A DNA stretch of 64,000 nucleotides, from NCBI GenBank assembly GCA_040876835.1, contig JBBDOX010000016.1, forward strand, positions 98,875 to 162,874, read 5' to 3'. Positions 39,660 through 63,293 of the stretch are shown piece after piece. The notes under the pieces were generated by a model. It did not search any database. It was given only the letters and a program-made list of their open reading frames with translations, and had not been told where the DNA came from. The DNA comes from Candidatus Anderseniibacteriota bacterium. GTDB lineage: Bacteria > Patescibacteriota > Andersenbacteria > UBA10190. Numbering within the stretch: the stretch's first letter is position 1; every line of letters begins with the position of its first letter. Made by a program: the position numbers and the translations under genes.

Positions 39660-39662
39660 ATA

Positions 39663-43595: not shown

Positions 43596-43652
43596 TTGTT
43601 ATACAGCGTCAACTTGCAGGAATGGCCCCACACAGCCTCTGTTCCGTAAGCA

Positions 43653-44570: not shown

Positions 44571-44571
44571 T

Positions 44572-46095
44572 CTATAAAGATGGTTCTTGAAAAATCCATA
44601 CGTACGGGAGCTTATTAACTGTCACAACGTGCACGGGAACTCGCTCCGGATCATCCAAATACCGCTTCGTAAAATCTGACTCAACCGAATCAGGCGCCCG
44701 CTCAAACATTGACCGATAGATGACTACATAGTCAGTATCATCACTCATATGTTCCAGCGAAGTTACATACCCAGTCCCTCCAAATTTATTCCAGCTGTAT
44801 TCAAACACGCTGCTGTAAAAAGCTACAACACTAGCTTGAGGGTCGCGCGCAGCAATATATTTTGCCGCCTCTTCTAATCCTTCACCCCACCCGAGTTTTT
44901 GCCGCTCGTGAAACGGAAGCAGACGATTGTAGTGACTCAAGTAATACGGATGAAGGCGAAAATCTGTAATAGCAAGTAAAAGAATGGGTAGGGCTGCCAA
45001 GACCAGCCCCACTTGGGGGGTGATAAAACGCTTAAGCAAGATAACTAATTGACGCAGTCCCATAACTGCCCAAATATCTACTGTAAGCAGTAGAAACAGC
45101 AGATAACGATCAGCCCGATCATTACTAGCATGGAGACACAGGGCATACACAAGACCGGAAGCCAGCAGAGTAAATAACATAAAGCGCACATGAGTCCTCT
45201 TTTCACGCCAGAAAGTTGCGACGCTCACAACGAAGAGAATTGAGATAGCCGCCGTCAGACGCATTGGGCCTTCTCGCATGTAGTACCACCACTGCGTCGA
45301 AGTTTCTCCCAATCGTCGATTGGAAGAGGAAGAATACCCACTGATGTTAGACCATAGATAGTCGAGTACTCCCAAGGCATCAACCCACAAAGCGGGCCAA
45401 ACAGCAAAAGCGGTGGCGACAGCTATGACAACCCAAAACCCCACTGTACTTCCCACCTGTTTTACCCGATGAGTTTTTTGCCAGACGTCCCACGCGACAA
45501 TCAAAGCAATCGGTCCAAGTGCGAAAAGAGCAAATATTTTTGTTGTAACGGCGAGTCCTGCCAGAATGGCGCTGAAAACAAGATAACGAGTTTCATACCC
45601 GTTGGAGCCTCCCTCCTTTCTGGCAACGCATAGACCGAGCACTGCAGTTAATAGTAAGAGAGCCAGTAGAGCATCCGTATGAACGACACGACTATGAGCG
45701 ATCAGGAACGGATCTAAAGCCAGTATGAAGCCGGTAATTACACCCCAGCGCCAAGCTAGAACCCTCACCAGAAAGTAGGTAGCAACAGCGATAAGCAAAC
45801 CTGTGGCAACAGCGATCGACGCCTGAGAGGCTGCCAGAGAATTAAAATGGGTGGTTACAGCTGACAGCCAGGTAGTGGTAACACCGGGCTGAAAGGCAAC
45901 TCTCGTATCAGCCATATGCAGACTGGCAAAGGCTTCCATAAACTTTGCACCCCTCGCCAGCCAAAGACGCTCATCAATTGTGAAGATTGTCCCGAGAGTT
46001 ATGATCCGCGGAACAAAAATTGCTGCAAATAAACCGACAAGAATGCTAACTCGTTGTATCAGTGTCATTCGCATAATCTGGTAGTATAGTAACAC
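44572..46095 (-). CDS. GT-C-fold glycosyltransferase, ArnT/PMT_2-like (paralog A of a local triad)
   Basis: 507 aa polytopic. A DE motif in the first loop (TIDERLW), then 'QPGVTTTWL', 'ALDPFLIAHSRVVHTDALL', and C-terminal 'QKLGWGEGLEEAAKYIAARDP'. Confidence 0.5.
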   Translation of the reverse strand: MLLYYQIMRMTLIQRVSILVGLFAAIFVPRIITLGTIFTIDERLWLARGAKFMEAFASLHMADTRVAFQPGVTTTWLSAVTTHFNSLAASQASIAVATGLLIAVATYFLVRVLAWRWGVITGFILALDPFLIAHSRVVHTDALLALLLLTAVLGLCVARKEGGSNGYETRYLVFSAILAGLAVTTKIFALFALGPIALIVAWDVWQKTHRVKQVGSTVGFWVVIAVATAFAVWPALWVDALGVLDYLWSNISGYSSSSNRRLGETSTQWWYYMREGPMRLTAAISILFVVSVATFWREKRTHVRFMLFTLLASGLVYALCLHASNDRADRYLLFLLLTVDIWAVMGLRQLVILLKRFITPQVGLVLAALPILLLAITDFRLHPYYLSHYNRLLPFHERQKLGWGEGLEEAAKYIAARDPQASVVAFYSSVFEYSWNKFGGTGYVTSLEHMSDDTDYVVIYRSMFERAPDSVESDFTKRYLDDPERVPVHVVTVNKLPYVWIFQEPSL

Positions 46096-46099
46096 TATT

Positions 46100-48388
46100 A
46101 TGCTGAAGAAAATTCGGGAAATCTACGAATTATGGCGAAGTATCGTGGTTCTTTTGAGTATAGTCATGATTGGAGGAGTGGCATTTCTGCTGCCGCTAGC
46201 GTTACCGGAATTTGTCATTGTCAGCGGCCCGGGCGGCAGCGGAGTATACGCGGAGCTCTCTCCCGGCACGACGTTTCGTCAAAACATAGAGATTCCGGAA
46301 AATCCGGCTAATAGCCTGTTTATCGCTTTAGAACATTCATCCGAGGCATCTCGCATCCAGGGACACCTTATCTCCTCTACTAACAGCTCTCCAATTGACA
46401 TCGGCTTTGGCCAACCAGCTAGAATACCAGTAACCGAAGAACGATCTATCTCAGGAGCATGGTGGCCAATTCCGGCTCTTGAGGCAGATGTTGGGCATGC
46501 TATTGAAATCTCGATTACAGACACAGCCCGGGATCCTATAAACATTGTAGCTGACGAGCGATCAACAGATAGCCAAGATGCAACGGTTCTAATTGATATT
46601 GCAGATGAGAAGCATCGACTGCCCTTAGCCCTCTCGACTACTCATCTGCGCCGACAACTGCGCTGGCCAGGGTTAACATCGCAAGACAAACAGTCGACAC
46701 AGCAAGCTGCTCTCTGGGCAGGATTGTCAGTTCTTTTCGTTATCGCAAGCATACTTGCAGTCAATGCCCTGGCTAAAGCTTCAAGGAATACAAAACAAAT
46801 GGTTTTTCTTATCCTAGGGAGCTGCGTGCTCATTGGAGGAATAGCTGCCCGAGTCTGGTTTGCGCGACAGCTTCCGCTGATAAATGATGAGCAGTTTTAC
46901 GTGTATGATGCAGTTTTATTCAGCCCTTCAGACCCCCACTTCTGGAAAAGCCCTCTCCTTATTACAGGTCTTCGCGTTTGGATGTCTATTACGGGCGCCT
47001 CTTCTCTCCTGGCTCTTCGCACCCTCCCTATACTCATATGTGCTGCTGCCTTAAGCTTGCTCGCCTACACCGCCTATCGACTAGCCGGTAAAGTTGCCGG
47101 AGCTGCAACATTGGTAGTTGGAATGCTCCTTCCGACGGTGATCCCATACACCTCGCTGATCATGACTGAGCATATGATGCTGCTACCGGCAATTGGAGCC
47201 GCCACACTGACAATATCCTTGCGGGACAGAAAAAAAATACTATGGTGGCAGTTGCTAATTGTGAGTGTGTTAGTGGGAGTAACCACTCTCGCTCGCTGGA
47301 GCGGAATTTTCTGGCTCATAGCTATTGTTTTGCTGTTCCGTATACGGGCTCCCCGCGAATATGCGAGAAGAGTTGGATGGCTGATTCTTCCCTACGTCGC
47401 CGCGTTCTTGGCCTTTATTGCTATATTTCCGAATATTCTACGTGGCTGGCGCATCACAGAAATGTTCGCGGAATTTTTCGAGCAATCCAGTGCCAGGGGA
47501 TGGCTAACAAAGTTTGCTGCCTGGCGCGTTCCTTTCGCCAATATTACCCCCCTGCTTGTAATAAGTGCCTGGGGATATAGCGGAGGCAACCGTGTACGGC
47601 GGATAATATATGCAATGATTGTCCTTGTTCTTATCCTCACTATCTTCCCAGTGCTGGAAATAGGCTCTCGCCTTCCAACGTATCCTCAGTACCAACAACT
47701 TGCCATATTCCTCCCCCTTACTCTGTTGTTTTTAGGGTTCACGTTTAAACCAATTTACTCAAGGCGGGCTCTTCTTGATGTCGCTATATTTAGCATACCT
47801 CCAGTTATTTCCTATATTATTTTCCATAAGATTAACGCAAAGTATCTGGCTGAATTCATGCCCGTTTTCATTCTTATGGCCGGTCTAGGTCTGGGAGTAA
47901 TATTCCAGCATATTCGTCAGAGGAAAGTTGCGGGAGGCCTTGCCTTCTTCATTTTGATTCTGTGGCTTCTCCCCTGGGTACAGCAGCCAATTAAGCATCC
48001 CTACGCTGGCACGCTTTCGGTTGAGGCAGTTACTGAAACAGTAGAGTATTTGAAAAAGAATAGCCGTTCCGATGAAAAGGTGCTGACCGGGGCAAATCTC
48101 ATTCCTCTCCTGGCTCAACGTGATCCGGCAAACAGAATTTCTCATCCCGCTTGGATTGCCCCTATGTTTCGAGGTCGGCCCGACGAGCGGTTTAACCAAC
48201 TATTTGATCCTGTAGCTGATCAGCTAGAGGCTCAGCAGATCCCGTGGGTAATTGACGAAAAGCTCACAACCGATACATATCGTGAACATCCCCGCATCGA
48301 TGCTATCCTCGCTGAGAAATATGAGGTGGTAAAGACAATTGAAAATGATCAGTCGGGACCCATAACTATTTTACGCCCGGCGCTGTGA
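46100..48388 (+). CDS. Large GT-C-like membrane protein (762 aa): N-terminal anchor, about 180-aa external domain, then a PMT_2/ArnT-like core with a DE motif
   Basis: 'LINDEQFYVYDAV', then multi-TM, then a C-terminal hydrophilic domain. Contains an A8 run at 47230-47237. Confidence 0.45.
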   Translation: MLKKIREIYELWRSIVVLLSIVMIGGVAFLLPLALPEFVIVSGPGGSGVYAELSPGTTFRQNIEIPENPANSLFIALEHSSEASRIQGHLISSTNSSPIDIGFGQPARIPVTEERSISGAWWPIPALEADVGHAIEISITDTARDPINIVADERSTDSQDATVLIDIADEKHRLPLALSTTHLRRQLRWPGLTSQDKQSTQQAALWAGLSVLFVIASILAVNALAKASRNTKQMVFLILGSCVLIGGIAARVWFARQLPLINDEQFYVYDAVLFSPSDPHFWKSPLLITGLRVWMSITGASSLLALRTLPILICAAALSLLAYTAYRLAGKVAGAATLVVGMLLPTVIPYTSLIMTEHMMLLPAIGAATLTISLRDRKKILWWQLLIVSVLVGVTTLARWSGIFWLIAIVLLFRIRAPREYARRVGWLILPYVAAFLAFIAIFPNILRGWRITEMFAEFFEQSSARGWLTKFAAWRVPFANITPLLVISAWGYSGGNRVRRIIYAMIVLVLILTIFPVLEIGSRLPTYPQYQQLAIFLPLTLLFLGFTFKPIYSRRALLDVAIFSIPPVISYIIFHKINAKYLAEFMPVFILMAGLGLGVIFQHIRQRKVAGGLAFFILILWLLPWVQQPIKHPYAGTLSVEAVTETVEYLKKNSRSDEKVLTGANLIPLLAQRDPANRISHPAWIAPMFRGRPDERFNQLFDPVADQLEAQQIPWVIDEKLTTDTYREHPRIDAILAEKYEVVKTIENDQSGPITILRPAL

Positions 48389-49491: not shown

Positions 49492-49559
49492 GCACCATTA
49501 CTCTCACTAGCCATCCTAACGCCCGGAGCGCTGTAAGGCCTCTTTAGCTGGACAGCACG

Positions 49560-50195
49560 ATGGTTGATGGTACTGTAATTTGTATGGCAATACTAAACTT
49601 GATTAAGCGACTCCCTATTGATCTAGGCCAGGGCCATTACCGTCATGAAACGAAGGCCAAAACAGTTGCTTTTGCTCTGGCTGGAGACGGAAACGGAAAA
49701 AAGGCTTTAGATTTCGGCTGCGGAGATGGTTTCTGGTCGGAACAGCTTAAAAGTCGCGGCTGGGACGTAACCTCGGTTGATAATTATGACTTCCGTTACA
49801 AATACACTCAGCAAGTAGATGCCGAACAGAAGCTTTCATTCCCCGACAATACATTTGAGTTAGTTTGGGTACTCGAAGTGGTTGAACATGTTAAGCATGT
49901 AGAGCAGCTTCTCGACGAGTTTAGACGTATCACGAAGCCTGGGGGACGCATAATTATCACTACTCCCAATTCTAATTTCTGGCTCTATCGCATCCTAAGG
50001 CCTTTTGGGATTACTCCGCCGAAAATTCAAAATCCGGATCACAAGCAGTTTTTTTCCTTTGCCGATATGCAGCGTCTGTTCCCCCAGGCATACATATACG
50101 GGTTCTTTCCGTATACCTTGATAAAATTGGTCATCAGTTCCGGGATTGGGTTCCTATCTCCTACCTTTATCGTCATTGAAGATCAGAGCGCATGA
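49560..50195 (+). CDS. Class I SAM-dependent methyltransferase
   Basis: 'ALDFGCGDGFWSEQL...FELVWVLEVVEHVKHVEQLLDEFRRITKPGGRIIITTPN'. Confidence 0.75.
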   Translation: MVDGTVICMAILNLIKRLPIDLGQGHYRHETKAKTVAFALAGDGNGKKALDFGCGDGFWSEQLKSRGWDVTSVDNYDFRYKYTQQVDAEQKLSFPDNTFELVWVLEVVEHVKHVEQLLDEFRRITKPGGRIIITTPNSNFWLYRILRPFGITPPKIQNPDHKQFFSFADMQRLFPQAYIYGFFPYTLIKLVISSGIGFLSPTFIVIEDQSA

Positions 50196-51730
50196 CCCAC
50201 CCCACTATTGAAGTTGAGCGTATAAACGCTCAGCAAAAGAAGATTATTCGCCTCCTTGCTGTCACCACCCTCCTCGTTGTCGCCGTTTTCGGCCCACGCC
50301 TATACCAGCTGGGATCGGTTTTAACAATTGATGAACCCCTGTGGGTAGACCGCGGCAAGAACTTCTTTCAGGCTATTAGCACTTTTCATTTTGCCAATAC
50401 TTTTCCACACACACAGCCTGGAGTTACAACAGCCTGGCTGACTGGTATTGGATCTATCTTTAATAGTCTCGCCGCCGCCCAGGCCGGAATAGCCATGGCT
50501 TCTGGTGCGCTAGTACTTAGCGCCACTTACTTTGCCGTGCTGCTATTCGGCAGACGCTATGGCCTGTTGTTCGGCTTACTTTTGGCCCTTGATCCTTTCC
50601 TAATCGCTCATGGGCGTGTTGCCCACACAGACTCCCTGCTAGCACTTTCCCTTCTTAACGCGACTTTCACTCTTCTGGTGGCCGGATACGCTCGAACTTC
50701 CGCCCTGCGAAAACAAGCTCGCTACTACGTATATTCCGGGGTTTTCTGTGGCCTGGGGGTGCTAACCAAAATTTTCGCTTTCGCTTTCTGGCCCCTGGCT
50801 TTTGTGTTAATTGCTATCCCTCTTTTTCAAAGTAAGCAGTGGCGGTTGATTCTAACACGTTACGTGCTCTGGCTAGGGATTACGGTGTTGACGATCTACA
50901 CCTTGTGGCCGGCTCTTTGGCTGGATGCCGGGGGAGTTGTTTTGCGTATGATGAATGAAATTGCCCCGTTTGCTGAAGGTACTCGGGAGCAGGAAGTGAC
51001 GAATCAGTGGTGGTTCTATTTTCGTGAAACACTCGTTCGCATCACTCCCATTACCAGCATCTTTGGAATAGTTGGATTGATTACCGCGATTAAAAATGTT
51101 AAGGAGCGTCAGAATCAGGCTATCCTCTTGCTGCTGGCAACAGCGATTATATACGCTGTCATTTTAAGTCTCCGCGGAGAAAAAAGTGATCGCTACATCC
51201 TCTTCAGTATGATTTCCTTCATTGGAGTTGCCACCCTTGGGGTGCAGGCGACCATTGGCTGGTTACGCCGCGAATGGCATGGTCGGGAGAAAGTGCTTTT
51301 TACAGTTATAACCACCATTTGTATCTTGTTTCTCACAGTGCAATCAGGTAGGCTCCACCCGCATCAGCTGGCCTATTATAACCAGTTTTACCCATTCAAG
51401 CAGTACCAGAAGATTGGCTGGGGCGAAGGACTCGAGGAGGCAGCTATCTGGGTGAATGAAAACCATCCTGACTGGCCAATTAGCACCTTTTATCCTCGCG
51501 TCTTTGAGCATTTCTACGAGGGCAAGGCAAGTGTTCAGTCGACCGAGCACGAGCCCAACACTAAGCCCTCTCTTCTCATTCTCTACCGCTCTATGCTCGA
51601 ACGCGGCCCTGACACTCCTGAAACTGACATCTTGAATAACTATTTGTTTGCTGGCGTGGAGCCACTCCATGTGGTCACCATCAACAACCTACCATACGTG
51701 TGGATTTACGAACGCATTCCGGGTAAGTAG
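50192..51730 (+). CDS. GT-C-fold glycosyltransferase, ArnT/PMT_2-like (paralog B)
   Basis: 512 aa. 'TIDEPLW', 'QPGVTTAWL', 'ALDPFLIAHGRVAHTDSLL', 'QKIGWGEGLEEAAIWVNENHP'. Confidence 0.5.
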   Translation: MTHPTIEVERINAQQKKIIRLLAVTTLLVVAVFGPRLYQLGSVLTIDEPLWVDRGKNFFQAISTFHFANTFPHTQPGVTTAWLTGIGSIFNSLAAAQAGIAMASGALVLSATYFAVLLFGRRYGLLFGLLLALDPFLIAHGRVAHTDSLLALSLLNATFTLLVAGYARTSALRKQARYYVYSGVFCGLGVLTKIFAFAFWPLAFVLIAIPLFQSKQWRLILTRYVLWLGITVLTIYTLWPALWLDAGGVVLRMMNEIAPFAEGTREQEVTNQWWFYFRETLVRITPITSIFGIVGLITAIKNVKERQNQAILLLLATAIIYAVILSLRGEKSDRYILFSMISFIGVATLGVQATIGWLRREWHGREKVLFTVITTICILFLTVQSGRLHPHQLAYYNQFYPFKQYQKIGWGEGLEEAAIWVNENHPDWPISTFYPRVFEHFYEGKASVQSTEHEPNTKPSLLILYRSMLERGPDTPETDILNNYLFAGVEPLHVVTINNLPYVWIYERIPGK

Positions 51731-51733
51731 GTT

Positions 51734-54112
51734 CTATCGACGTCGATGCAGAATGTAGTCATCGTCCGTCTGAGCCGCGTTCAGCGTAAACACCGGTTCA
51801 AACCTGCTCGCTAAAATTTCCTGTCGCTGAGAATACCCATTGAAATATACTTCGTTAGTTCGGCGATCCGTGAGAACAAAGTTAACCTGCGAATCCAGAA
51901 ATTCTGTAATATTCTCCGGATCCTGGAAATATACTTTTCGTAATTCCGTAGACACTTCCCCTTCCGCCTCGTACAGATACCAGCCTGAATGGCTGTATGA
52001 GAACATAATTTCTCGGTCTGCGAGAGCGGTAAATGCCGACTGCGCTGTAAAAATGGGTTCATTCTCCGGAACAAATCGCTGAATTGCCTGGGATACTTGA
52101 GCAATTTCATCATGCTCAATATCGCCTGCGTGAGGATACTTAAGCGCCAGGTTCCAGCTCAGCAAATACGATAGAGAAACAAGCCACAACAGGCTGAAAT
52201 ATGCCAACATTCGCCCCGGTGTCCGGGTTGCGTTGCGTACAACCCGGACAAATCCGGTAAGGCTCATAGCGGCCATAATAGTAAGTGGTGGCAGGAATTC
52301 CACCAAGTAGTTCTGCACGAAATTTCCCCACGAGCCATACAAGAGAATCAGCAATCCAACCCAGATCCCCCAAAACGCTATCCATCGGGTTTCATAATCA
52401 TTGTTCTCCTGATCGCCTAGGATTCGCAGTACCAGAGCGACAATGTAGACAACGACCGTAGCCAGAGAAGTTGCAATAATGATAAGCGGGGAGCCTGTGG
52501 GCAGTAGATACGCCATGTCGTGCGCGTGCCAGAAGAACATAAACACTCCAGCAGACCAGATAATTAGCACAATGCGGCGAGTCCACGCATTGCGATAATG
52601 CACAGTAAATAAAGGAATAAGAAGCACTCCGAGAATCAGCCAGGGAGAGCTTTTCCAGAGAACTCGAGCATTTTCAGCGATAGAACGAAGAATGGGTTCT
52701 TCGGTATGCTCAGATGCTACAGCCTGTCGCTCGCCAGCAATAGTGAGAGCTTCAATGTTAAACAAAATAGCGGTTTTAGTTTGTCCTATCGTGCCAAGAG
52801 AAGCGAAGACTATACCCGCGGTTATAACGAGTCCAGAGATGACATACGTCGCAACATTGCGCCAGCTGCGGTTAAAGAGCAGCAGGTACAACAACCCCAT
52901 AAAAATTCCCACGGCACTGCTGGCCCGGGTTAAATACGCAATAACCATCAGAGCACCAGCAAGCGCGATATAATACTGATTCTTCTTACTACTCCCTGTG
53001 GCCAGCGCGGCTAGACCGCCGACGACAAACATTGTGCTAACTACCTGCAAGAGGAGAGGTGTTGTCAAAACAACTGCTGCGGGCGATAGAGCTAGCAAAG
53101 CCGCAGTGATTCCGCGTAACAATGGGGTTACTCGGTTGCGTCTCAGAAACACATCAAACAGTAGGATCACCGCACTCCAGGCGATGGCCGATAGTGTCCG
53201 CAGCCACAGTATGGAATCAGGAACAATGATCTGCCACATCTTGAGGAGGTAAATGTATACCGGCCCCTTCGTCAAGAAATCCGCAATTGGCACGTTATGG
53301 ACATTTGTCTGAACAGCATCCTGCAGATATGCGCCCTCATCGTTATTTAACGGAAAAATGTTAGCGCTCCAGAAGTGAAACAGCAGTGCCAGTAAGGCAC
53401 TAATGTACACCACTCTTCGGACACGCACCGCAGGCCTTCGAACCAGTCGATATACCGCCATTAGGGCAAGAGCTACAAAGAATCCTTGAACAAAGTACCG
53501 GCCACCAGCCAAATTTAACCAGACCTGCTCAGGATCAACATGGGTCCAGGGACGCGTGGATATAAAATTAAGAATCCGAGCCTGGCTTCCATTCATACTA
53601 AAAGCATAGTTTCCGCTGATGACAACTGCTTTTACGTATGCATCCCCCTGAATGTATGCGTTATCATCAATCTCCCGATATACCACCACCGTCTTATCGG
53701 CATTGTGGGGGGCCTCCAGTATCCAGGTTAGCTTACGATTTCCATGCAGAGGCTCAAAAGAAAACTTTGCTTCTCCCGACTGTGGTGCGAACATCGGTAT
53801 TACCCGTAGGTCCTCGCCATCCAATCCCTCTCGGATATGCAGCAGAATCGGCCCACTATCTTCTACTAGAATCTCTAAGGGAATGGTCAAAGACTTCAGT
53901 CCAGGAACAGCGATAAAGGACTGTCCCACAGTCCGTGTATCTCCAAAGCTGATTCCGGCTTTTTGATTCGGCGCAGCTGGGATCGTATGGGAAACCGGGA
54001 TAGGGGAAAACAGGTACGTCAGCCCCAATCCGATTAGAATAGTTAACACTAACAACCGGGAATGGCGCTGGAGATATCTGGTGATTAATAATAGTCTGGC
54101 AGCGGTTTTCAT
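51734..54112 (-). CDS. Large GT-C-like membrane protein (792 aa): N-terminal anchor, about 200-aa external domain, then a PMT_2/ArnT-like core with a DE motif
   Basis: 'LNNDEGAYLQDAV', then multi-TM, then a C-terminal hydrophilic domain. Confidence 0.45.
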   Translation of the reverse strand: MKTAARLLLITRYLQRHSRLLVLTILIGLGLTYLFSPIPVSHTIPAAPNQKAGISFGDTRTVGQSFIAVPGLKSLTIPLEILVEDSGPILLHIREGLDGEDLRVIPMFAPQSGEAKFSFEPLHGNRKLTWILEAPHNADKTVVVYREIDDNAYIQGDAYVKAVVISGNYAFSMNGSQARILNFISTRPWTHVDPEQVWLNLAGGRYFVQGFFVALALMAVYRLVRRPAVRVRRVVYISALLALLFHFWSANIFPLNNDEGAYLQDAVQTNVHNVPIADFLTKGPVYIYLLKMWQIIVPDSILWLRTLSAIAWSAVILLFDVFLRRNRVTPLLRGITAALLALSPAAVVLTTPLLLQVVSTMFVVGGLAALATGSSKKNQYYIALAGALMVIAYLTRASSAVGIFMGLLYLLLFNRSWRNVATYVISGLVITAGIVFASLGTIGQTKTAILFNIEALTIAGERQAVASEHTEEPILRSIAENARVLWKSSPWLILGVLLIPLFTVHYRNAWTRRIVLIIWSAGVFMFFWHAHDMAYLLPTGSPLIIIATSLATVVVYIVALVLRILGDQENNDYETRWIAFWGIWVGLLILLYGSWGNFVQNYLVEFLPPLTIMAAMSLTGFVRVVRNATRTPGRMLAYFSLLWLVSLSYLLSWNLALKYPHAGDIEHDEIAQVSQAIQRFVPENEPIFTAQSAFTALADREIMFSYSHSGWYLYEAEGEVSTELRKVYFQDPENITEFLDSQVNFVLTDRRTNEVYFNGYSQRQEILASRFEPVFTLNAAQTDDDYILHRRR

Positions 54113-54140
54113 ATAGCCAGCATACTAGCCTTCGGCTGCT

Positions 54141-54221
54141 TGGCAAAATATGAATGGCCGCTGGTCGCTTTTTAAAAATCTGATAGACTTAATTTCGTGC
54201 AACAGCTGGCAAAATATGAAT
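54141..54221. repeat. Direct repeat 'tggcaaaatatgaat' x2 (54141-54155 and 54207-54221; extended flanks are near-identical), spaced 66 bp
   Basis: Read directly from the sequence. Copy 2 overlaps the start of CDS 54197-54724. Copy 1 lies in the divergent intergenic region. Confidence 0.8.
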
Positions 54222-54724
54222 ATTTAGTAATCGGAGCTTTAGGAATTTTGGCTCTACTAATTATTATTCCTGCTGTCTTTAAGGCCCGAATAGCCGTTCG
54301 AGATGATTTGCGTATGCAGGATATGGCTATTCTCAAACAGGCCGTCGAACAATACAACAATACGCATGATTTTTATGTCACCCCTCCAACCACTACTTCT
54401 CCTTGTACAACATCTATGGAGTTAGACAGCTGGCTATTTGGAAGCAACTCGAGCCTGATCAAGGAGGGGCATATTGATGCTCTACCACACGATGTACGTG
54501 AGTCCACCGATCGGCACTATGTCTACTGTGCTACCGACATTCAGAGTGGGCGCACAACTGGGTATTACCTTGAAGCACACTTGGAACAGCGTCTAGAACC
54601 AGAAATTGGTTTTGATGAGGACGAGAGTCGAAAATTTGACTATCGGATTTTGAATCAGGACGACAAGACTCTGTACCGTGTTTGTGGTGGGACAGAGACA
54701 CAATGCAAACCGCAGGACGCATAA
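54197..54724 (+). CDS. Hypothetical N-terminally anchored small protein (175 aa) with pilin-like architecture (GTG start)
   Basis: An N-terminal hydrophobic helix is followed by an amphipathic segment and a C-terminal Cys pair (VCGGTETQC). There is no canonical prepilin G-F-T-L-I-E site. Confidence 0.35.
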   Translation: MQQLAKYEYLVIGALGILALLIIIPAVFKARIAVRDDLRMQDMAILKQAVEQYNNTHDFYVTPPTTTSPCTTSMELDSWLFGSNSSLIKEGHIDALPHDVRESTDRHYVYCATDIQSGRTTGYYLEAHLEQRLEPEIGFDEDESRKFDYRILNQDDKTLYRVCGGTETQCKPQDA

Positions 54725-56883
54725 CCGGCTTCGTCGGCATAATTATTCTTGGACTGCTTATTCTGAGCAGCTTCGTTCGGCTGCATCCCCGAGCCACCCT
54801 TACGCATACTCCCGATGATAAGCACCTACATCAAGTATTCGGGCGGCACCGTATCACTCAACAGATCGTTGCCCCCACGGACACACTGGCCGGTTTAGAA
54901 CTGTTTGTAGATGAGAACTCACTAACACCCGCGGATGCCCCGCTCTTTCTTCACGTTCGCTTAGCAGGAACGGATGAAGACATTCGCACCGTCAAGCAGT
55001 CTATCGCCAAGACTCAGCATGGCGAGCGCCTTGTGTTTGCCTTTGAACGGATTGAAAATACTCATGACAGGGCATACGAATTCGAGCTCGAAGCTCCTTC
55101 GCTCAATCAGTCCCAAGCGCTCCGTATTCGCTATCAAACTGATGCGAGTAAATATCCGCTTGGTCGGTCATGGTCATCAGATGAGGCAAAGCAAGGCAGC
55201 CTGGGATTCGTTGTGATTGAGGAGCCCTCAGCTCTCGCCATTATCGCTCGATGGATAATCGACTCTGATAATTTCCTTGTATGGCCTTCTATTGCTGCAA
55301 TGATCTTTGGAATACTTGGGTGGCACTACCAGAAAAATGCCGCAAGAGCTGAAACATGGTGGCACGACCGTTGGAATCACGTTCCGCGAAAGCATCTCTT
55401 CTTTTGGTTTCTAGGTATCTTAACCGCTACTTTTTTCCTGTACTGGCCGGCACTGCAGCAGTTTTACTACCACGATGACTTAGCTCTCCTGGCCCGCGGT
55501 ATTCAATTTACCAGTGAGCATCCCTGGGAAATTATTAGCGCCAGGGCATACCTAGAAACGGACCCTTACTCTCAGTTTGCTCTTCCGTTTTGGCGGCCAC
55601 TTTCGGCCGGGATATACCCCCTGGTAACTTTCTTTCTGTTTAAACTCAATAGCGTCGCCGTATTTGCACTCCATCTTCTCCTTACCGGAATTACTGGTGG
55701 CCTTCTCTTCTTGTTAGCACTGCTCTATCTGCAAAAACCGATAGTTAGTGGATTGACGGTCACATTTTGGCTTGCACATTCTTCAAAGGTTGGGGCGCTA
55801 TACTGGTGGAGTTCTTCTCAAGACATTCTTGCCAGCCTCTTAATTCTCACTAGCATACTGCTATATAGCTACTGGCGCTCATATCCTTCTAAGCGCGTTG
55901 TATTGTACGGAGCAATTAGTACAGCAGCTCTGGCAATGCTCTCCAAAGAGCACGCCATTCTAGCTCCCCTCATTATCTGGATCTTTTGTGAATTTCCGCC
56001 TCTTCTTCAGGCCTGGAAGAAAAAATACCTTGTCGCCTCCTTTATACGTATTGCTCCCTTTGTTTTCACAGCGGGTATATATCTTGCCTTACGCACTATT
56101 GCCTTTAGTGATCAAACGTTGCCGGAACTGTTTCGCAACGACACAACCTACGAGATGGCAACGAGCGTGAGCAAAATCGCTCAAAATTTTGTCACTTACG
56201 GTGCCTGGTCAGCTGAGCAATGGATCTGGCCTGAAAATATTTTTAATGGGCTCGATGGCGCTCTTGGAAGCTGGATGTGGGAGATAAAGATTCAGAAACC
56301 GCTGTATCCCGGTATTATTGCGCTCATCGCCCTACTTCTTCTACCCATACTATTCTGGAAAAAAACGAATATTCGAACCAATCTCTTGCTTGGGACTGCA
56401 TGGTGGCTTCTTTTTCTGGGTCCAACGCTTTTTCTTAACCACCAATGGGATGCGCGCTGGTTGTATATGCCTATCTTTGGAGTGGGATTCATCTTGGGTG
56501 TCCTGTTTCTCCTCCTGAAGCCGCAGTTAAGAAATCCACTCGTCATCTTATCTATAGTCGCTCTTCTTGGTTACGGCTTCTGGCAAGCTCGTGACGAAGA
56601 ACATACAAAATTTTCTCGGGAACAAGCAGCGTATAGCCGCGTAGCATTTAATCAATTTAAGGACCAAAAACATGTGCTGAATGCTGACTCCAAAGTAGTG
56701 GTAGTAGGCGTTACTCCTCATCAAACAACCTCGGTCAATGCCTATCTGTTCCGTCTGGCTGGTATGCCAGCCAACACCCCACTTATCCGCACCGATAGGA
56801 TGCCCACAGAATTTTCAGAACATGATATCGTAATTGACATGTCAGATTACGACGCCTTTTACCCTCACTATGATCAGGACTAA
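54682..56883 (+). CDS. Large polytopic membrane protein (733 aa): N-terminal anchor, about 170-aa external domain, then a polytopic core; YfhO/GT-C-like
   Basis: 'WPALQQFYYHDDLALLARG' loop motif. At least 12 hydrophobic segments. Confidence 0.4.
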   Translation: MWWDRDTMQTAGRITGFVGIIILGLLILSSFVRLHPRATLTHTPDDKHLHQVFGRHRITQQIVAPTDTLAGLELFVDENSLTPADAPLFLHVRLAGTDEDIRTVKQSIAKTQHGERLVFAFERIENTHDRAYEFELEAPSLNQSQALRIRYQTDASKYPLGRSWSSDEAKQGSLGFVVIEEPSALAIIARWIIDSDNFLVWPSIAAMIFGILGWHYQKNAARAETWWHDRWNHVPRKHLFFWFLGILTATFFLYWPALQQFYYHDDLALLARGIQFTSEHPWEIISARAYLETDPYSQFALPFWRPLSAGIYPLVTFFLFKLNSVAVFALHLLLTGITGGLLFLLALLYLQKPIVSGLTVTFWLAHSSKVGALYWWSSSQDILASLLILTSILLYSYWRSYPSKRVVLYGAISTAALAMLSKEHAILAPLIIWIFCEFPPLLQAWKKKYLVASFIRIAPFVFTAGIYLALRTIAFSDQTLPELFRNDTTYEMATSVSKIAQNFVTYGAWSAEQWIWPENIFNGLDGALGSWMWEIKIQKPLYPGIIALIALLLLPILFWKKTNIRTNLLLGTAWWLLFLGPTLFLNHQWDARWLYMPIFGVGFILGVLFLLLKPQLRNPLVILSIVALLGYGFWQARDEEHTKFSREQAAYSRVAFNQFKDQKHVLNADSKVVVVGVTPHQTTSVNAYLFRLAGMPANTPLIRTDRMPTEFSEHDIVIDMSDYDAFYPHYDQD

Positions 56884-59749
56884 AGCCATACAACTTCTTC
56901 GCGATAACCGAGTAGGCCTTGCGCTGATCGTTATTGCCTGGATTATATTTTTTAGTCCCATTCTGTCGGGGAAATATGTTTACTTTCTCGATGACTTAAA
57001 AATCATTTACTACCCCTTGGAGTATGAATATGCCCAGGCTCAGGAGAACTGGCAGCTACCTGTGTGGAGTAATACCTTTGGATTTGGGCAACCGCTTATC
57101 GCCTGGGGTCAACTCGGCTTCCTTACCCCCATTCACCTTCTCCTACGGCTTATAGGAATTGCTCCCCTCAATCTTCTACAGGTGTCCGTTGTGTCCTACT
57201 TTTTAGTAGGGCTACTGGGCATGTACACCTTTTTCCGTCAACGCCTCTTTGATCAGCTACCATCAGCCGTGGCTGCTGTTATCTTCGCATTCTCCGGTTT
57301 TGCGATTGGGCATTTGAATCATGTGAACTTTTATACTTCCACCATGCTACTGCCCTGGCTACTGGTGTCAGCATATGCATTACTTCAGAAACCAACCCTG
57401 GGAAGATCTCTTGTTCTTGCCCTAGTTGCCGCTGCCACCACTGTCAGCGGTCAGCCACAGATAGTACTATTTGTCTTTATTGCCGCAGCGGGAGTGAGTC
57501 TGGGACTGCTTATCGAAAAATATGCGCTACAGATTAAAAAGCAAAGAAAACGTATTGCGAAACTAGTATCCTTGACGATCCTGGCCGGCGGCCTGGGCCT
57601 TGTGCTGTCAGCCTTTGCTATTCTCCCTTTGTATGAATTTATTCCGCTTACCGAACGAGCTGAGCCGCTTCCGCCGACAGAGCGTCTGGAATTTAGCTAC
57701 CCGCCCCTCCATGCTGTTACGCTGGTATTACCGTATTTCTTTGGTAATCACGAAAACTACTGGGGGGCTAAGGGCTTTCAGGAACTGGCGGCATTCACGG
57801 GCCTGATCCCGCTATTCCTATCTGGAGCAGCCTTAGTGCGCTGGAAAACTCACAAACCCGAGCGAGTAGTAGGAATACTGTTCATCGCCCTGGCAGTCAT
57901 TATGGCTCTGGGTCGACATTCTTTCCTCTACGCCTACCTGGTCGATCGTCATATTATAACCTCCCTGGGCGTCGCCGGACGATTCGTATTTTTCTTTGAC
58001 CTGGGAATCATGCTGCTGGCCGCGTCCGCGCTTCAGGATCTACAAACTTCAAAGAAGAAGTATGCTTTGCTGGCATGCATAACTGGTCTTCTTTTTACTG
58101 CCGGTATTCTCACCCCCTTCTTCATTTACATGCAGGGCACACCGGATGTCTATACCCGCTTTATTTCTATAGCTTCATCTGCAGACGCTACTTGGATTGC
58201 CGCGCTTCTTGGACTACTGATTATTCCTGCCTACGTCCTTGTGGCATACAGGCAACGATTGGTGAAACCTGTATCGGTGATGATAAGTATCATCGCCACA
58301 GCCACTCTCCTTACATACTCATGGAATTACAATCCGCTTACTTACCGCTCTGCCGCAAACGCTTCAGTTATCTTTGCTGACAACCTCAAACAATACACCA
58401 CCGACAGTGTCACTCCTGCCCGCCTGTACTCTCGTCCCGATCTGATCCAAAATTCCTCTATCACAAAGCATACTGATCCAATTTCTCCTGTCTTTGCTGT
58501 CTACCAGCCGTTTGATATTGAACTAGACAATCTCAGCTGCTTCCGACTGCCTATGCAGTCAGGACCCGAAGCAGTTGGCGAGATTCACCTGGGGTTGCAC
58601 GAAGACCCTCTAGCACAGCCCATTCGCACCCTGACACTTGATAGCGCTGAAGTAGACGCCATATTTGAGGAAAAAGTATGCTTCAATCCGGTTTCAGACA
58701 GTGCCGGTAAACAATACTGGCTCTCAATTACCAGTGATTCCGTCAGTGGAGTAACTCTCTTTTATCAGGACACGGAGCAATCGCAACCTCAAGTATACTT
58801 TGTTCGTAAAGCAGACCCCACAGTCGAGCAATGGCGGCAATCTCAAAAAAACGCGGTGGTAATCGCTGAACCAATCTTCCCCAAACAAATTGACGAGGAA
58901 GCGATTCTTCTAGCCCGTCACTTAAACGTACCTGCCGACAGCTCGAGTGCCCGCTGGATTGGTGCGTTATCTCTGCGTGACTACCGTGCCTTCATCGAAT
59001 TCTTCTTTGCTAATGACAGGGAGCCTATTGACGGAGATGGTCTACATGTTATCCAGCGCTACCGTAATATCCTGAATATGGTTGGAGTTACTCACCTAGC
59101 CCAGATACTCCCCCTCACCAACGAGGACAGCATGTTAAGTAATAACTTCGAGTTAACCGATGAGGTGGCTGTAAGTAACAAGCGCGCCCGCCTATATACC
59201 AATCCACAGGCTTACCCTAAAGCCTTTATGGTAAAAAACGCCGTTTGGAAATCAGCCGCAGACGAGACCCGTGATCGCATGCGTTCATCAGCATTTGATC
59301 CCCAAAAAGTTGTATATATCAGCGGCCCCAGACCCCCGACTGAGCTTGTTAACCAGGACTGGGAGGCAGCTGAAGAGCTGGCCTTAGCCGACACCTCTTC
59401 TCTGACATATACGGCTACTGTTGATCAGTATACCCCCACTCAAGTTGATCTTACCGTTCAAACTGACGAAGACGCCTGGCTGGTGATGACCGACTCCACC
59501 ACTCCGCAATGGCATACAACGATTAACGAGGAGCCCGCTGCACAATATGTTGCGTACTCTGTTTTTAAAGCCGCTTTCATTCCGGCCGGAACCCAGAAAG
59601 TATCCTTCACATATTCCTCCCCGGCAATTGAGTTATCGAAAAACCTAACATTGACGGGCCTAGCTGCCGTTGTCCTTTTATCCGGCCTGACTCTTTATCT
59701 CAGCAAACGCGATTCTTCCTCCGACACCAAGACACCGCCAACTGCATAG
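56870..59749 (+). CDS. YfhO-family-like GT-C membrane glycosyltransferase (about 960 aa)
   Basis: 'FFSPILSGKYVYFLDDLKIIYYPLEYEY' resembles the YfhO N-terminal loop. A polytopic core is followed by a roughly 450-aa C-terminal extracytoplasmic domain. The start is ambiguous between TTG at 56834 and ATG at 56870. Confidence 0.5.
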   Translation: MIRTKAIQLLRDNRVGLALIVIAWIIFFSPILSGKYVYFLDDLKIIYYPLEYEYAQAQENWQLPVWSNTFGFGQPLIAWGQLGFLTPIHLLLRLIGIAPLNLLQVSVVSYFLVGLLGMYTFFRQRLFDQLPSAVAAVIFAFSGFAIGHLNHVNFYTSTMLLPWLLVSAYALLQKPTLGRSLVLALVAAATTVSGQPQIVLFVFIAAAGVSLGLLIEKYALQIKKQRKRIAKLVSLTILAGGLGLVLSAFAILPLYEFIPLTERAEPLPPTERLEFSYPPLHAVTLVLPYFFGNHENYWGAKGFQELAAFTGLIPLFLSGAALVRWKTHKPERVVGILFIALAVIMALGRHSFLYAYLVDRHIITSLGVAGRFVFFFDLGIMLLAASALQDLQTSKKKYALLACITGLLFTAGILTPFFIYMQGTPDVYTRFISIASSADATWIAALLGLLIIPAYVLVAYRQRLVKPVSVMISIIATATLLTYSWNYNPLTYRSAANASVIFADNLKQYTTDSVTPARLYSRPDLIQNSSITKHTDPISPVFAVYQPFDIELDNLSCFRLPMQSGPEAVGEIHLGLHEDPLAQPIRTLTLDSAEVDAIFEEKVCFNPVSDSAGKQYWLSITSDSVSGVTLFYQDTEQSQPQVYFVRKADPTVEQWRQSQKNAVVIAEPIFPKQIDEEAILLARHLNVPADSSSARWIGALSLRDYRAFIEFFFANDREPIDGDGLHVIQRYRNILNMVGVTHLAQILPLTNEDSMLSNNFELTDEVAVSNKRARLYTNPQAYPKAFMVKNAVWKSAADETRDRMRSSAFDPQKVVYISGPRPPTELVNQDWEAAEELALADTSSLTYTATVDQYTPTQVDLTVQTDEDAWLVMTDSTTPQWHTTINEEPAAQYVAYSVFKAAFIPAGTQKVSFTYSSPAIELSKNLTLTGLAAVVLLSGLTLYLSKRDSSSDTKTPPTA

Positions 59750-61740
59750 CGTAGCCGTATAGCAAGATTACCTTCTCTTACGTCACTGTCAGTAATACTT
59801 CCGCTTTGCGAAAAGAACATGTTTGAGTTGCGATACTTATGCTCACTAGTGTATCGGACTGTTGGAGCGTTTCCTGTTGCAGTACCAGTAGCATATATTT
59901 CTACAAACACCGCTTGCCCGCTTCGATTGATCGCTTGCGGCAATGGCAAGGTCATCCATTCATCGTTTGCAATATTGCTAACGGGTACCTCCCAACGATG
60001 AAGCAGGTGACCCTGGAGCGCATCTTTAAGTTCGGCAACAAATACGCCCGAGTCAGCTCTGCCGCTGAATGTCGGTACAAGCACATCAATACCCCCGAGT
60101 TGTTCGTGCTCGACTGCTATTTCCTGCCCTACTCTAACCGCTGTTGTAAGCTCGCCCACATGCCGTTCATATGACCGCTGCTCATATACCCAGGCATATT
60201 CCTTACCAGAAATCATAGCGACAAATACTGGCGTTCGTTTGCTGTAATACTGTTCAACCATCTCCGTAGCTGGATGATCAGCAGCTCGCCCGAACATGTT
60301 GCGATACAGCACGACGAATTGATTCTGGGGATGTTCATGGGCGCCGTAGTCCAGAACCTGGGCGGAAGTATATGCCTGGAGCTCCTGCGGATACCACGAA
60401 GCTACAACAGCCTCAGGATGATTTTCCGAAAGCCACAAGCCCACCTGATCCAACCCCTCTCCCCAGCCCAGTTCCTGACTTAGGTTATCGGGGAATATGG
60501 GGTTACTGTACGCAATCTCGTACGGATGGTACTGCCAAACCACTGTTGCGAGATATATCACAGCAGCGCTTATCGGTACTACCGGAGCTATGCGCCAGCG
60601 TTTAATAGCCATGGTGCCAATGCCAAGAAGAGCAGTGGCCGCCAGTATATCCAGCACCGGGTACACTGGCAAAATGTACCGGTCACCTTTCTTTGCTCCC
60701 AGAGTCATCATGAGCACAAAAAATATCACGAACGATACGAGCAGCAGTACCGGGCGACTATCTCGCCCAGCCAACCCCTCTTTTGCAATACGCCAGATAA
60801 TATACAAGACGGCTAGAGTCGCAAATATTAGCGTTACTGGGGTAGTGCGCGTCACCAGTGCTGCCGGATAATGCCAGGGATTTAAAGTATATTCCTCGGC
60901 CATGTGGTGAGGTGTTACGGCAGCAATTGTTAAGTCTCGTCTAATAAGGTTAGCGTTGCCTTCGGGGTTAGGGACGAATATTAAAGCCGGCCAGGTAAAG
61001 AGAATGAGCAATATAATCATAAGCAACCACGCTACCAGGTCACGACTACGTGCCAGCAAAACACGCTTTAAGAATATCTTTTTGTTCTCATACACCAATA
61101 CTGTCAGTAGGAAAAACGGGATGATAAATATGGCAGGAGCCTTAGTGAGAATAGCCGCAGCTGACAACACCCCCGAGATCACCAGCCACCGGCGGGAATA
61201 ACCTTCTTGCGCGTAGATGATGACTGATAAGGCGGCTAATACCAGTAGGCTCGCCAGCAATGCATCCACATGAGCCACACGTGAATATCCAATCAGAAAA
61301 GGATTTAGTGCAATCAGTATCCCAGCAGTACCAGCCAGCAGCTGTGAAATAGACAGACGACGAAGAAAAATATATATCAGTGGAACTGCCAGTGCATTCA
61401 CGAGCGCAATGGGAAATTGAGCTGCCTTTACAAAATGGATGATATTCGCCAGTGAGAACGGCACGTGGCCGATCATCATTTTAACCGCAATAGCTGTGCC
61501 CGACAGCCACATAGTTGTGACCCCAGGATGCGTTGTCTGCAACATGTCATTAAAACGCAGGTCTTTGAACGCTCGCACGAACTCATAGGAGCGTATCATC
61601 CAGTTTTTTTCATCCGCAGTCAGAAAGGACCCAAGATCAAGCAGACGCGGGAGTGCTGCAATGATAAAAATTCCGATGACAATAAGAATGTCACGTTTAT
61701 GAGTGACGTAAAAACGATGGATATGAGTCCGTACCTGCAT
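59695..61740 (-). CDS. GT-C-fold glycosyltransferase, ArnT/PMT_2-like (paralog C, with an extra C-terminal domain)
   Basis: 681 aa. 'LTADEKNW', 'HPGVTTMWL', 'ALNPFLIGYSRVAHVDALL', 'QELGWGEGLDQVGLWLSENHP'. It overlaps the convergent gene by 55 nt. Confidence 0.5.
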   Translation of the reverse strand: MQVRTHIHRFYVTHKRDILIVIGIFIIAALPRLLDLGSFLTADEKNWMIRSYEFVRAFKDLRFNDMLQTTHPGVTTMWLSGTAIAVKMMIGHVPFSLANIIHFVKAAQFPIALVNALAVPLIYIFLRRLSISQLLAGTAGILIALNPFLIGYSRVAHVDALLASLLVLAALSVIIYAQEGYSRRWLVISGVLSAAAILTKAPAIFIIPFFLLTVLVYENKKIFLKRVLLARSRDLVAWLLMIILLILFTWPALIFVPNPEGNANLIRRDLTIAAVTPHHMAEEYTLNPWHYPAALVTRTTPVTLIFATLAVLYIIWRIAKEGLAGRDSRPVLLLVSFVIFFVLMMTLGAKKGDRYILPVYPVLDILAATALLGIGTMAIKRWRIAPVVPISAAVIYLATVVWQYHPYEIAYSNPIFPDNLSQELGWGEGLDQVGLWLSENHPEAVVASWYPQELQAYTSAQVLDYGAHEHPQNQFVVLYRNMFGRAADHPATEMVEQYYSKRTPVFVAMISGKEYAWVYEQRSYERHVGELTTAVRVGQEIAVEHEQLGGIDVLVPTFSGRADSGVFVAELKDALQGHLLHRWEVPVSNIANDEWMTLPLPQAINRSGQAVFVEIYATGTATGNAPTVRYTSEHKYRNSNMFFSQSGSITDSDVREGNLAIRLRYAVGGVLVSEEESRLLR

Positions 61741-63281: not shown

Positions 63282-63293
63282 TGCGAAACCAGC

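Follow-up and report, generated by a model that had tools for sequence, protein, structure and literature searches.

A GWGEGL-type subfamily of predicted GT-C glycosyltransferases, represented by three paralogs in an Andersenbacteria glycan island

What do three related membrane proteins, here called A, B and C, contribute to a cell-envelope glycan locus, and did they arise there? The genomes of Patescibacteria are tiny, and the cells live attached to others. The DNA analysed here (the window) comes from an uncultured Candidatus Andersenbacteria (Patescibacteria) and forms a 64-kb cell-envelope glycan island, so that at least 64 kb of a small genome are spent on envelope glycans; this stretch encodes three members of one family and several further GT-C-like proteins. 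A sequence-only reading had described A, B and C as a locally expanded triad of GT-C enzymes with private motifs, using related lipid-linked donors. Our analysis supports the enzyme class and the type of donor, and gives a different account of the motifs and of the origin of the three genes.

Paralogy, fold and conserved residues

The three genes and an additional domain of C are located as follows.

44572..46095, minus strand: paralog A, 507 aa, short-form GWGEGL-type GT-C (Pfam PMT, family HMM), GWGEGL at 44875-44892
50192..51730, plus strand: paralog B, 512 aa, short form, GWGEGL at G409-L414 (nt 51416-51433)
59695..61740, minus strand: paralog C, HPGVTT-type long form of 681 aa, core and C-terminal α/β domain as in A and B, GWGEGL at 60451-60468
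59725..60165, minus strand: extra all-β domain of C, residues ~526-672, CBM-like fold

The three ORFs are paralogs, as had been recognised with correct coordinates and strands. Pairwise BLASTP with compositional adjustment revealed full-length similarity, with 39% identity over 502 aa between A and B (E = 3e-101), 28% over 516 aa between A and C (E = 2e-43) and 30% over 521 aa between B and C (E = 1e-58). The conserved blocks are located in loops, and A and B share 44% identity in their soluble C-terminal domains. The similarity is thus not confined to hydrophobic helices, and chance or low-complexity similarity is ruled out by the E-values and the soluble-domain conservation. The blocks quoted previously are present in all three proteins, apart from small slips: HPGVTT occurs in C only, while A and B read QPGVTT; A reads HYN where Y(Y/S)N had been given; and C reads FPD instead of PF. 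The true start of A probably lies 7 codons downstream, at 46074, since the same sequence is called in public data as a 500-aa product (P0051, from Andersenbacteria at NCBI, with the name 'phospholipid carrier-dependent glycosyltransferase').

The assignment to GT-C enzymes of the PMT/PMT_2/ArnT type holds by Pfam score, profile alignment and structural similarity. Pfam PMT (PF02366) scores 41.1, 29.5 and 33.0 bits for A, B and C against a gathering cut-off of 22.7, in matches that span only profile positions ~82-233 of 245. NCBIfam contains no equivalog for the three, and a far sub-threshold Agl23 match was obtained for C alone. The family HMM gives them 552-615 bits (A 615), and the next best ORFs of the window 9-16 bits. 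In a six-frame translation of the window (46,089 residues in ORFs of 60 aa or more), the motifs GWGEG, PG[VI]TT, [SG]R[VI].H.D, T.DE..W and xDRY[IL]L are exclusive to A, B and C. When compared with PDB sequences, a profile of 83 sequences reached ArnT and Pmt1, whereas a profile of the three paralogs alone found nothing.

The polytopic membrane core shows the GT-C helix arrangement and is structurally similar to solved GT-Cs, as expected of a GT-C_A enzyme. In the predicted model, B has 11 TM helices followed by a C-terminal α/β domain (residues 414-507). Its key residues are D47-E48, P76GVTT80, R142, H145, D147, K193, W239-P240, R334-Y335 and G409WGEGL414, and each of the three paralogs keeps the complete catalytic set. 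T45-x-D47-E48, at least 90% conserved across the family, lies in a loop (38-92) with two short helices (48-63 and 78-90), corresponding to the acidic motif in the first extracytoplasmic loop (EL1) of GT-C_A enzymes. D47-E48 falls at the position of Pmt1 D77/E78, although the profile alignment itself begins at Pmt1 F81 (PMC7801869). R334-Y335, K193 and D147 are also at least 90% conserved and align with ArnT Y345, K203 and D158. In GT-Cs, the donor phosphate is handled by the Arg/Tyr of clan M7 and by a Lys after TM5 that is paired with an Asp before TM4 (PMC7801869); by alignment, the family has these donor-phosphate residues. PGVTT is aligned at the site of Pmt1 HPPLAK and ArnT E84/K85, and is devoid of a basic residue.

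The first three blocks, all N-terminal, are subfamily versions of generic ligand-binding and catalytic positions of the GT-C/PMT clan, as judged by alignment and the published comparison (PMC7801869). They do carry a subfamily-specific signal, since the remote PMT_2-type proteins of the window differ at the same positions. GWGEGL is subfamily-specific and, as had been proposed, is located outside the TM core: it lies ~20 residues past the last TM helix and opens the external C-terminal α/β domain. Homology to solved GT-Cs is the main basis for the membrane orientation, because the positive-inside count (K+R 8/38 on the N-terminal side vs 10/123 in the short loops of the other side, with AF2 helix boundaries) is only weakly discriminating.

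A profile of the C-terminal domain matched PDB sequences at chance level only (E >= 0.65; LATS1, V-ATPase d1) and found no oligosaccharyltransferase (OST), so that the domain is not linked to the OST WWDYG domain at the sequence level. Matches of the full-length profile to eL24 were weak (E >= 0.02), involved C-terminal positions only and were treated as chance. The idea, formed by eye, that the extra β-domain of C recurs in the neighbouring large membrane proteins was unsupported by BLASTP and phmmer and was dropped.

Family distribution and age of the duplications

At E <= 1e-30 the family comprises 2,887 representatives of 50%-identity clusters. Among species-representative genomes, more than 530 loci were confirmed; they belong to Patescibacteria, Chloroflexota and a small number of further lineages. 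The motifs are at least 90% conserved across this whole family, and are thus common to thousands of proteins in several phyla rather than private to the triad. Our literature search found nothing specific on the subfamily, on GT-C enzymes of CPR bacteria or on GT2-GT-C fusions, and nearly 3,000 clusters without a characterised member represent a real annotation gap. Identification of the donor and acceptor of the family would help to understand how the surfaces of CPR bacteria and Chloroflexota are built chemically, and the homologs in cultured Chloroflexota put this question within experimental reach. Among the Chloroflexota loci are ones from MAGs of Oscillochloris, Litorilinea, Caldilineaceae and Roseiflexaceae.

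The neighbouring genes of the three paralogs bear on the age of the duplications.

38514-40808: GT4 gene (Pfam)
42864-43595, minus strand: class I SAM methyltransferase gene beside A (Pfam Methyltransf_11/23)
43653-44570, plus strand: class I SAM methyltransferase gene beside A (Pfam Methyltransf_11/23)
46100..48388, plus strand: 762-aa polytopic membrane protein between A and B, conserved in related loci L001 and L002
48385-49491, plus strand: GT4 glycosyltransferase upstream of B (Pfam; same order in L001)
49560-50195, plus strand: class I methyltransferase directly upstream of B, overlapping its start by 4 nt (Pfam; same order in L001)
51734..54112, minus strand: 792-aa remote PMT_2-like GT-C candidate (PMT_2 20.8 bits, below cut-off; Agl23-like, E = 9e-7)
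54197..59749, plus strand: conserved module beside C, encoding a membrane-anchored protein (175 aa), a membrane protein (733 aa) and a YfhO-type GT-C (971 aa; YfhO Pfam E = 1.2e-10)

The family genes are indeed interleaved with the two GT4 and three class I methyltransferase genes, as described before. The divergent orientation of the two methyltransferase genes at 42864..44570 is repeated in L001 and L002, and A-type and B-type genes occur together in one module both in the window and in L001. The 762-aa protein, which has no match in Pfam or NCBIfam, is a paralog of the 792-aa protein (BLASTP E = 5e-11), and a 789-aa ortholog of the latter occupies the same position in L004.

The proximity of the three copies, within 17 kb, and the absence of their blocks from the other GT-C proteins of the window would fit a recent, locally expanded private subfamily that arose within the locus. 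The orthologs speak strongly against this. A is 79% identical to its ortholog in another MAG (P0038) and B is likewise 79% identical to its own, the two lying there in the same gene order, yet A and B are far less similar to each other and less still to C. The C ortholog in another MAG is 49% identical and has the same neighbours; C orthologs adjoin the same YfhO-type gene and ~720-aa neighbours (L003, L004). Since other Andersenbacteria carry a separate ortholog of each paralog, with the gene order conserved, the duplications are old, and a local origin, which the wide occurrence of the motifs also contradicts, is very improbable. From these comparisons, A, B and C are anciently diverged paralogs of one large, widespread, uncharacterised subfamily.

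Donor supply and proposed function

The window encodes three GT2 proteins that may supply the donor.

13455..14447, plus strand: candidate polyprenyl-phosphate-sugar synthase, 330 aa, with C-terminal TM helices (best PDB matches Pyrococcus Dol-P-Man synthase 5mlz, E = 4.9e-13, and ArnC, E = 1.7e-12)
17959..18669, plus strand: candidate polyprenyl-phosphate-sugar synthase, 236 aa (5mlz, E = 5.4e-12; ArnC, E = 3.6e-10)
30020..30727, plus strand: candidate polyprenyl-phosphate-mannose-type synthase, 235 aa (5mlz, E = 5.2e-31, full length)

Moreover, 12 of the 120 homologs listed are GT2-GT-C fusions, which also occur in L004 and L006, and the fused GT2 is Dol-P-Man-synthase-like (DPMS/ArnC/GtrB type). 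The best match in the window to the fused GT2 domain of one such homolog (P0036; P0013 is another fusion) is the 330-aa protein (E = 2e-24), and 19 of 78 loci have a DPMS/ArnC-like GT2 no more than 6 kb away. The fusions and the three GT2 genes support polyprenyl-phosphate-sugar donors, consistent with the lipid-linked donors suggested earlier, and the fusions tie donor synthesis to donor use in a direct and testable way. As for a flippase, none of five scanned small unannotated ORFs of the window (107-194 aa) matched a Pfam family, GtrA included, at E <= 0.1. Two Wzx-like proteins and MurJ are encoded in the window, and a GtrA-like ORF is present in L004.

We consider, with a probability of roughly 0.6, that A, B and C are GT-C_A, PMT/ArnT-like membrane glycosyltransferases transferring a single sugar from polyprenyl-phosphate to an acceptor at the outer face. 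A cytoplasmic or membrane-associated GT2 of the DPMS/ArnC/GtrB type would load the sugar onto polyprenyl monophosphate, the lipid-linked sugar would be flipped across the membrane, and each paralog would pass it on outside. The three enzymes may do so in successive additions, and GWGEGL may bind the acceptor, as suggested earlier. Aligned with solved GT-Cs, the family offers candidate roles for its residues: D47-E48 of B, the Asp-Glu pair of EL1, may activate the acceptor; D147 and K193 are the counterparts of ArnT D158 and K203; R334-Y335 matches the Arg/Tyr of clan M7 (ArnT Y345) and may bind the donor phosphate; and PGVTT takes the site of Pmt1 HPPLAK and ArnT E84/K85. Most likely, A, B and C are set apart by sugar, linkage or acceptor, and C, with its CBM-like β-domain, probably acts on or beside a glycan. 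A, B and C are an ordinary enzyme kind from an uncharacterised subfamily; the expected enzymology is conventional GT-C chemistry, and the finding is therefore useful rather than surprising.

Comparison with known systems and alternative functions

The family is distant from ArnT (GT83; Und-P-L-Ara4N:lipid A transferase; PDB 5ezm/5f15), with an identity of only 13-16% and 11 predicted TM helices instead of 13. ArnT Lys85, which contacts the metal ion or the donor phosphate (PMC7801869) and characterises GT83, is absent, its KPPL block being replaced by PGVTT, and the ArnT alignment has no counterpart of GWGEGL. The DegT-type aminotransferase and ArnC-like GT2 genes of the window stand in another context, and an operon of the arn type was not recognised there.

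It is possible, though we hold the view tentatively, that A, B and C are true PMT/GT39 protein O-glycosyl (O-mannosyl) transferases, which would modify Ser/Thr of secreted surface proteins (pilins, S-layer protein) with polyprenyl-phosphate-mannose as the donor. The PF02366 scores lie above gathering, and the DE pair resembles that of PMTs and differs from ArnT. However, the identity to PMTs (yeast Pmt1-Pmt2 6p25, Pmt4 9e61) is 11-15%; the HPPLAK-type block with which the second EL1 helix begins has become (Q/H)PGVTT, with only the Pro kept, plus the His in C-type members; and the family lacks the luminal MIR domain, having the C-terminal α/β domain with GWGEGL instead. The PMT family has been solved as dimers (6p25 Pmt1-Pmt2 heterodimer, 9i5k Pmt4 homodimer), and A and B could likewise form an obligate heterodimer rather than act one after the other. 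Such an assembly would account for the retention of the pair in conserved gene order, and at least two family copies are found in 36 of 78 loci. It is nevertheless unlikely, given that the A and B genes lie on opposite strands with three other genes between them, that many loci have a single copy and that neither paralog lacks any catalytic residue.

GWGEGL is located at a place comparable to the WWDYG of the OST catalytic subunits AglB/PglB/STT3 (GT66), and might be a degenerate WWDYG acceptor pocket in an oligosaccharyltransferase- or ligase-like enzyme for which a polyprenyl-diphosphate carrier would donate a pre-assembled oligosaccharide en bloc. Several observations make this quite improbable: neither WWDYG nor DK/MI was identified in the family; GWGEG and WWDYG have only the W and the final G in common (2/5); the C-terminal-domain profile recovered no OST; OSTs have 13 TM helices, against 11 here; and, while OSTs use a diphosphate-oligosaccharide donor, the Rosetta-stone fusion partner is a monophosphate-sugar synthase, which argues for single-sugar transfer. 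A hybrid is conceivable but doubtful, in which the GWGEGL family, mainly of Patescibacteria and Chloroflexota, would be a distinct unnamed extracytoplasmic glycosyltransferase class with a PMT/ArnT-like monosaccharide-transfer core and an OST-like (CC-unit) C-terminal acceptor-binding domain, GWGEGL playing the role of WWDYG. If so, it would constitute a new protein- or polymer-glycosylating system, self-sufficient in some lineages because the DPMS-like donor synthase is fused to the GT-C.

The single-sugar transfer that we prefer follows the logic of the multi-component glycosylation systems (Gtr*, GtlB (PMT_2), YfhO, CsdB/D/F), in which a GT2 makes the polyprenyl-P-sugar and a GT-C uses it outside; several GT-A/GT-C pairs are possible per genome (PMC8035078, PMC11127046). 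The likeness extends to the YfhO-type GT-C beside C and to the DPMS/GtrB-like GT2 encoded together with the GT-C, in the island or fused to it in homologs. On the other hand, GT2 and GT-C in one polypeptide are unmentioned in these two papers, the signature motifs and the C-terminal domain are different, and the hosts are Patescibacteria and Chloroflexota instead of Firmicutes or Enterobacteria. The island also contains a split GT-C gene at 62496-63986; TGA recoding was ruled out as the explanation, because TGA ends 15 of the 46 genes.

Three members of a widespread GT-C family

The window encodes three paralogous GT-C-fold membrane glycosyltransferases, designated A, B and C:

44572-46095, (-), A, ORF of 507 aa
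50192-51730, (+), B, ORF of 512 aa
59695-61740, (-), C, ORF of 681 aa

The sequence-only reading had located these ORFs correctly, and their similarity spans the entire length (BLASTP: A-B, 39% identity, E = 3e-101; A-C, 28%, E = 2e-43; B-C, 30%, E = 1e-58). The blocks it quoted occur in all three proteins, with slips in detail: HPGVTT is present only in C, A and B having QPGVTT, and A reads HYN and C reads FPD. Six-frame translation of the window confines the signature blocks to A, B and C, which alone among the window ORFs score highly with the family HMM (552-615 bits). An artefact of transmembrane composition is excluded: loops contain the conserved blocks, and A and B share 44% identity over their soluble C-terminal domains.

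All three proteins exceed the Pfam cut-off for PMT (PF02366) and score around that for PMT_2, and no NCBIfam equivalog matches any of them. A protein identical to A, from a Candidatus Andersenbacteria MAG, bears the NCBI name 'phospholipid carrier-dependent glycosyltransferase'. Our 83-sequence profile matches ArnT (5ezm, E = 6.8e-6) and yeast Pmt1 (6p25_A, E = 1.7e-4). The AlphaFold2 models of B (pLDDT 95.1, pTM 0.94) and C (pLDDT 90.2) are confident. In the B model there are 11 TM helices; two short helices lie within the long first external loop, and residues 414-507 form a C-terminal α/β domain. This domain of the family is possibly OST-like. The observation of a related triad is thus confirmed, and the interpretation placed on it is supported in part. 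A, B and C are uncharacterised PMT/ArnT-like GT-C enzymes, most likely serving extracytoplasmic glycosylation that depends on polyprenyl-phosphate sugars.

The motifs had been considered private to the triad, but their broad occurrence identifies them as a family signature that crosses phyla. A profile was searched exhaustively against 1.84 billion cluster representatives and matched 2,887 of them at E <= 1e-30; the best 150 are all full-length matches (E < 1e-132, 487-1,119 aa). Among 134 new members from this search, 79 carry the exact C-terminal block GWGEGL, 113 fit the pattern G.G[EQ]G[LMIV], and 82 have the C-type HPGVTT, the most frequent form. A GWGEGL-pattern scan of species-representative genomes yielded at least 532 confirmed relatives; the best 80 of these loci are distributed over Patescibacteria (Andersenbacteria and others), many Chloroflexota (Anaerolineae, Caldilineaceae, Chloroflexia), some Actinomycetota and one archaeal MAG. 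The literature searched contained no paper on the GWGEGL subfamily, and public annotation gives its members generic labels only. The most useful leads are a large family without a characterised member, the GT2 domains fused to some of its proteins and a C-terminal domain that may be OST-like.

The archaeal member, from a Candidatus Hydrothermarchaeales MAG (JBHIFP010000005.1), is 32% identical to B (E = 1e-53) and has a DPMS-like GT2 nearby; it could reflect horizontal transfer or a binning error.

Conserved sites and probable donor

The quoted blocks are at least 90% conserved among 123 homologs, as are PR36, W51, R54, LTK193, WP240, Y276, R283, DRY335, HP390 and N397 (B numbering). We combined HMMER alignments with a published motif analysis of the GT-C/PMT clan (PMC7801869), which gave the following correspondence.

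Conserved motifs of the family and their counterparts in known GT-C enzymes
TxDE; B D47-E48; EL1 catalytic pair, Pmt1 D77/E78
(Q/H)PGVTT; B 76-80, start of second EL1 helix; Pmt1 HPPLAK, ArnT E84/K85
AHSRVxHTD; last residue B D147, before TM4; Pmt1 'SRYILLD', ArnT D158
LTK; B K193; ArnT K203, Pmt1 'SSSK'
DRY; B R334-Y335; clan M7 Arg/Tyr, ArnT Y345

By position, blocks 1-3 are therefore generic GT-C ligand-binding sites, and only their exact sequences are subfamily-specific. Where the triad has 'DPFLIAHSRVxHTD', remote PMT_2-like proteins of the window have 'TPIYILYQRLGWTIT' or 'LSPAAVVLTTPLLLQ'; these proteins lack GWGEGL. This last block, exact in 111 of the 123 homologs, has no counterpart in the alignments with ArnT and Pmt1. 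As proposed, it lies outside the TM core, ~20 residues past the last TM helix and directly before the first helix of the external C-terminal domain. A, B and C each retain every invariant position and therefore look catalytically competent.

Successive additions from related lipid-linked donors had been envisaged for the triad. Among the matches listed, 12 of 120 homologs contain a GT2 domain (P0006, P0013, P0015, P0020, P0024, P0026, P0032, P0033, P0035, P0036, P0047 and P0052), N-terminal in all three fusions inspected, and such fusions are encoded at the loci L004 (10001-12190) and L006. In L004, from Andersenbacteria, the fusion gene occupies the position of B. The P0036 GT2 domain best matches the Pyrococcus Dol-P-Man synthase (5mlz, E = 1e-18), followed by ArnC and GtrB. 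Free-standing GT2 genes of this type are present in the window:

13455-14447, GT2
17959-18669, GT2
30020-30727, GT2 matching 5mlz (E = 5e-31)

Such a fusion would place donor synthase and donor user in one polypeptide. Together with the three window genes, it provides Rosetta-stone evidence that the family most likely uses polyprenyl-monophosphate sugars. The GT2 N-terminus of P0006 differs from, and is more divergent than, those of P0036 and P0013, suggesting that fusion may have arisen more than once. The inferred donor use matches the established scheme of multi-component transmembrane glycosylation, comprising a GT-A, a flippase and a GT-C, with several GT-A/GT-C pairs known per genome (PMC8035078; PMC11127046). 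A Pfam scan of five small unannotated ORFs of the window (107-194 aa) revealed no GtrA flippase; Wzx-like flippases are encoded in the window.

Old duplications in conserved modules

The triad had been interpreted as a local expansion, which our comparisons do not support. Neighbour-joining places A, B and C in three separate clades, each including orthologs from other MAGs. The contig L001 (~75% nucleotide identity) retains the order methyltransferase, methyltransferase, A-like, 762-aa protein, GT4, methyltransferase, B-like. The A-like and B-like proteins share 79% identity with A and B, respectively, as against 39% between A and B. The C orthologs of L003 and L004 (48-49% identity) adjoin the same YfhO-type gene and a ~720-aa membrane protein. 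Two or more family copies lie within ~13 kb of one another at 36 of the 78 loci, in different phyla. A, B and C are thus old duplications retained in conserved modules. Window positions 40055-48856 are matched at 100% identity by a public contig, L002.

The surrounding glycan island

The entire window is a cell-envelope glycan island, encoding a DegT aminotransferase, FemAB, Wzy_C, two Wzx-like flippases, MurJ, a TagF-like enzyme, a polysaccharide deacetylase, SpoIID, glycosyltransferases (five GT2, about a dozen GT4, two GT9) and several further large membrane proteins, one a YfhO-type GT-C. The triad is interspersed, as had been noted, with GT4 and class I methyltransferase genes, and also with the following:

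46100-48388, (+), 762-aa membrane protein, no above-threshold Pfam match
51734-54112, (-), 792-aa membrane protein, no above-threshold Pfam match
54197-54724, (+), 175-aa protein, one N-terminal TM helix, then 'ARIAVRDDLRMQDMAILKQAVEQY'
54682-56883, (+), 733-aa membrane protein, no above-threshold Pfam match

The 762- and 792-aa proteins are paralogs (BLASTP, E = 5e-11), and the N-terminal ~150 residues of the latter resemble those of the 733-aa protein (E about 4e-4). Corresponding positions hold the 762-aa protein in L001 and L002 and a ~790-aa protein in L004. The 175-aa protein, which looks pilin-like by eye, matches nothing in Pfam at E <= 0.1; it has a 173-aa counterpart at the same position in L004 and could be a substrate or accessory protein.

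Class I SAM methyltransferase genes (42864-44570; 49560-50195), some with hydrophobic C-termini, adjoin the short-form A/B-type paralogs here and in L001, L002 and L004. The pairing recurs at 12 of the 44 loci that are mostly from Patescibacteria, against only 2 of the 34 mostly from Chloroflexota, and may indicate methylated sugars.

An 891-aa protein (6498-9173, (-)) is a fusion with a Wzx-like polysaccharide flippase domain at residues 16-338 and a GT4-type glycosyltransferase domain towards its C-terminus (720-857). Two genes of the heptosyltransferase family GT9, usually associated with LPS core synthesis, occur in this Patescibacteria genome (35044-36126, (+); 28934-30010, (+)).

TGA, TAA and TAG all serve as stop codons, TGA terminating 15 of 46 window genes. 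The ORFs 63294-63986 and 62496-63281 (-) share one frame, with one TGA and four codons between them, and successively match positions 84-199 and 273-369 of the GT-C family profile. Together they look like one remote PMT_2-type GT-C gene at 62496-63986 (-) with an internal stop, hence a pseudogene or an assembly error.
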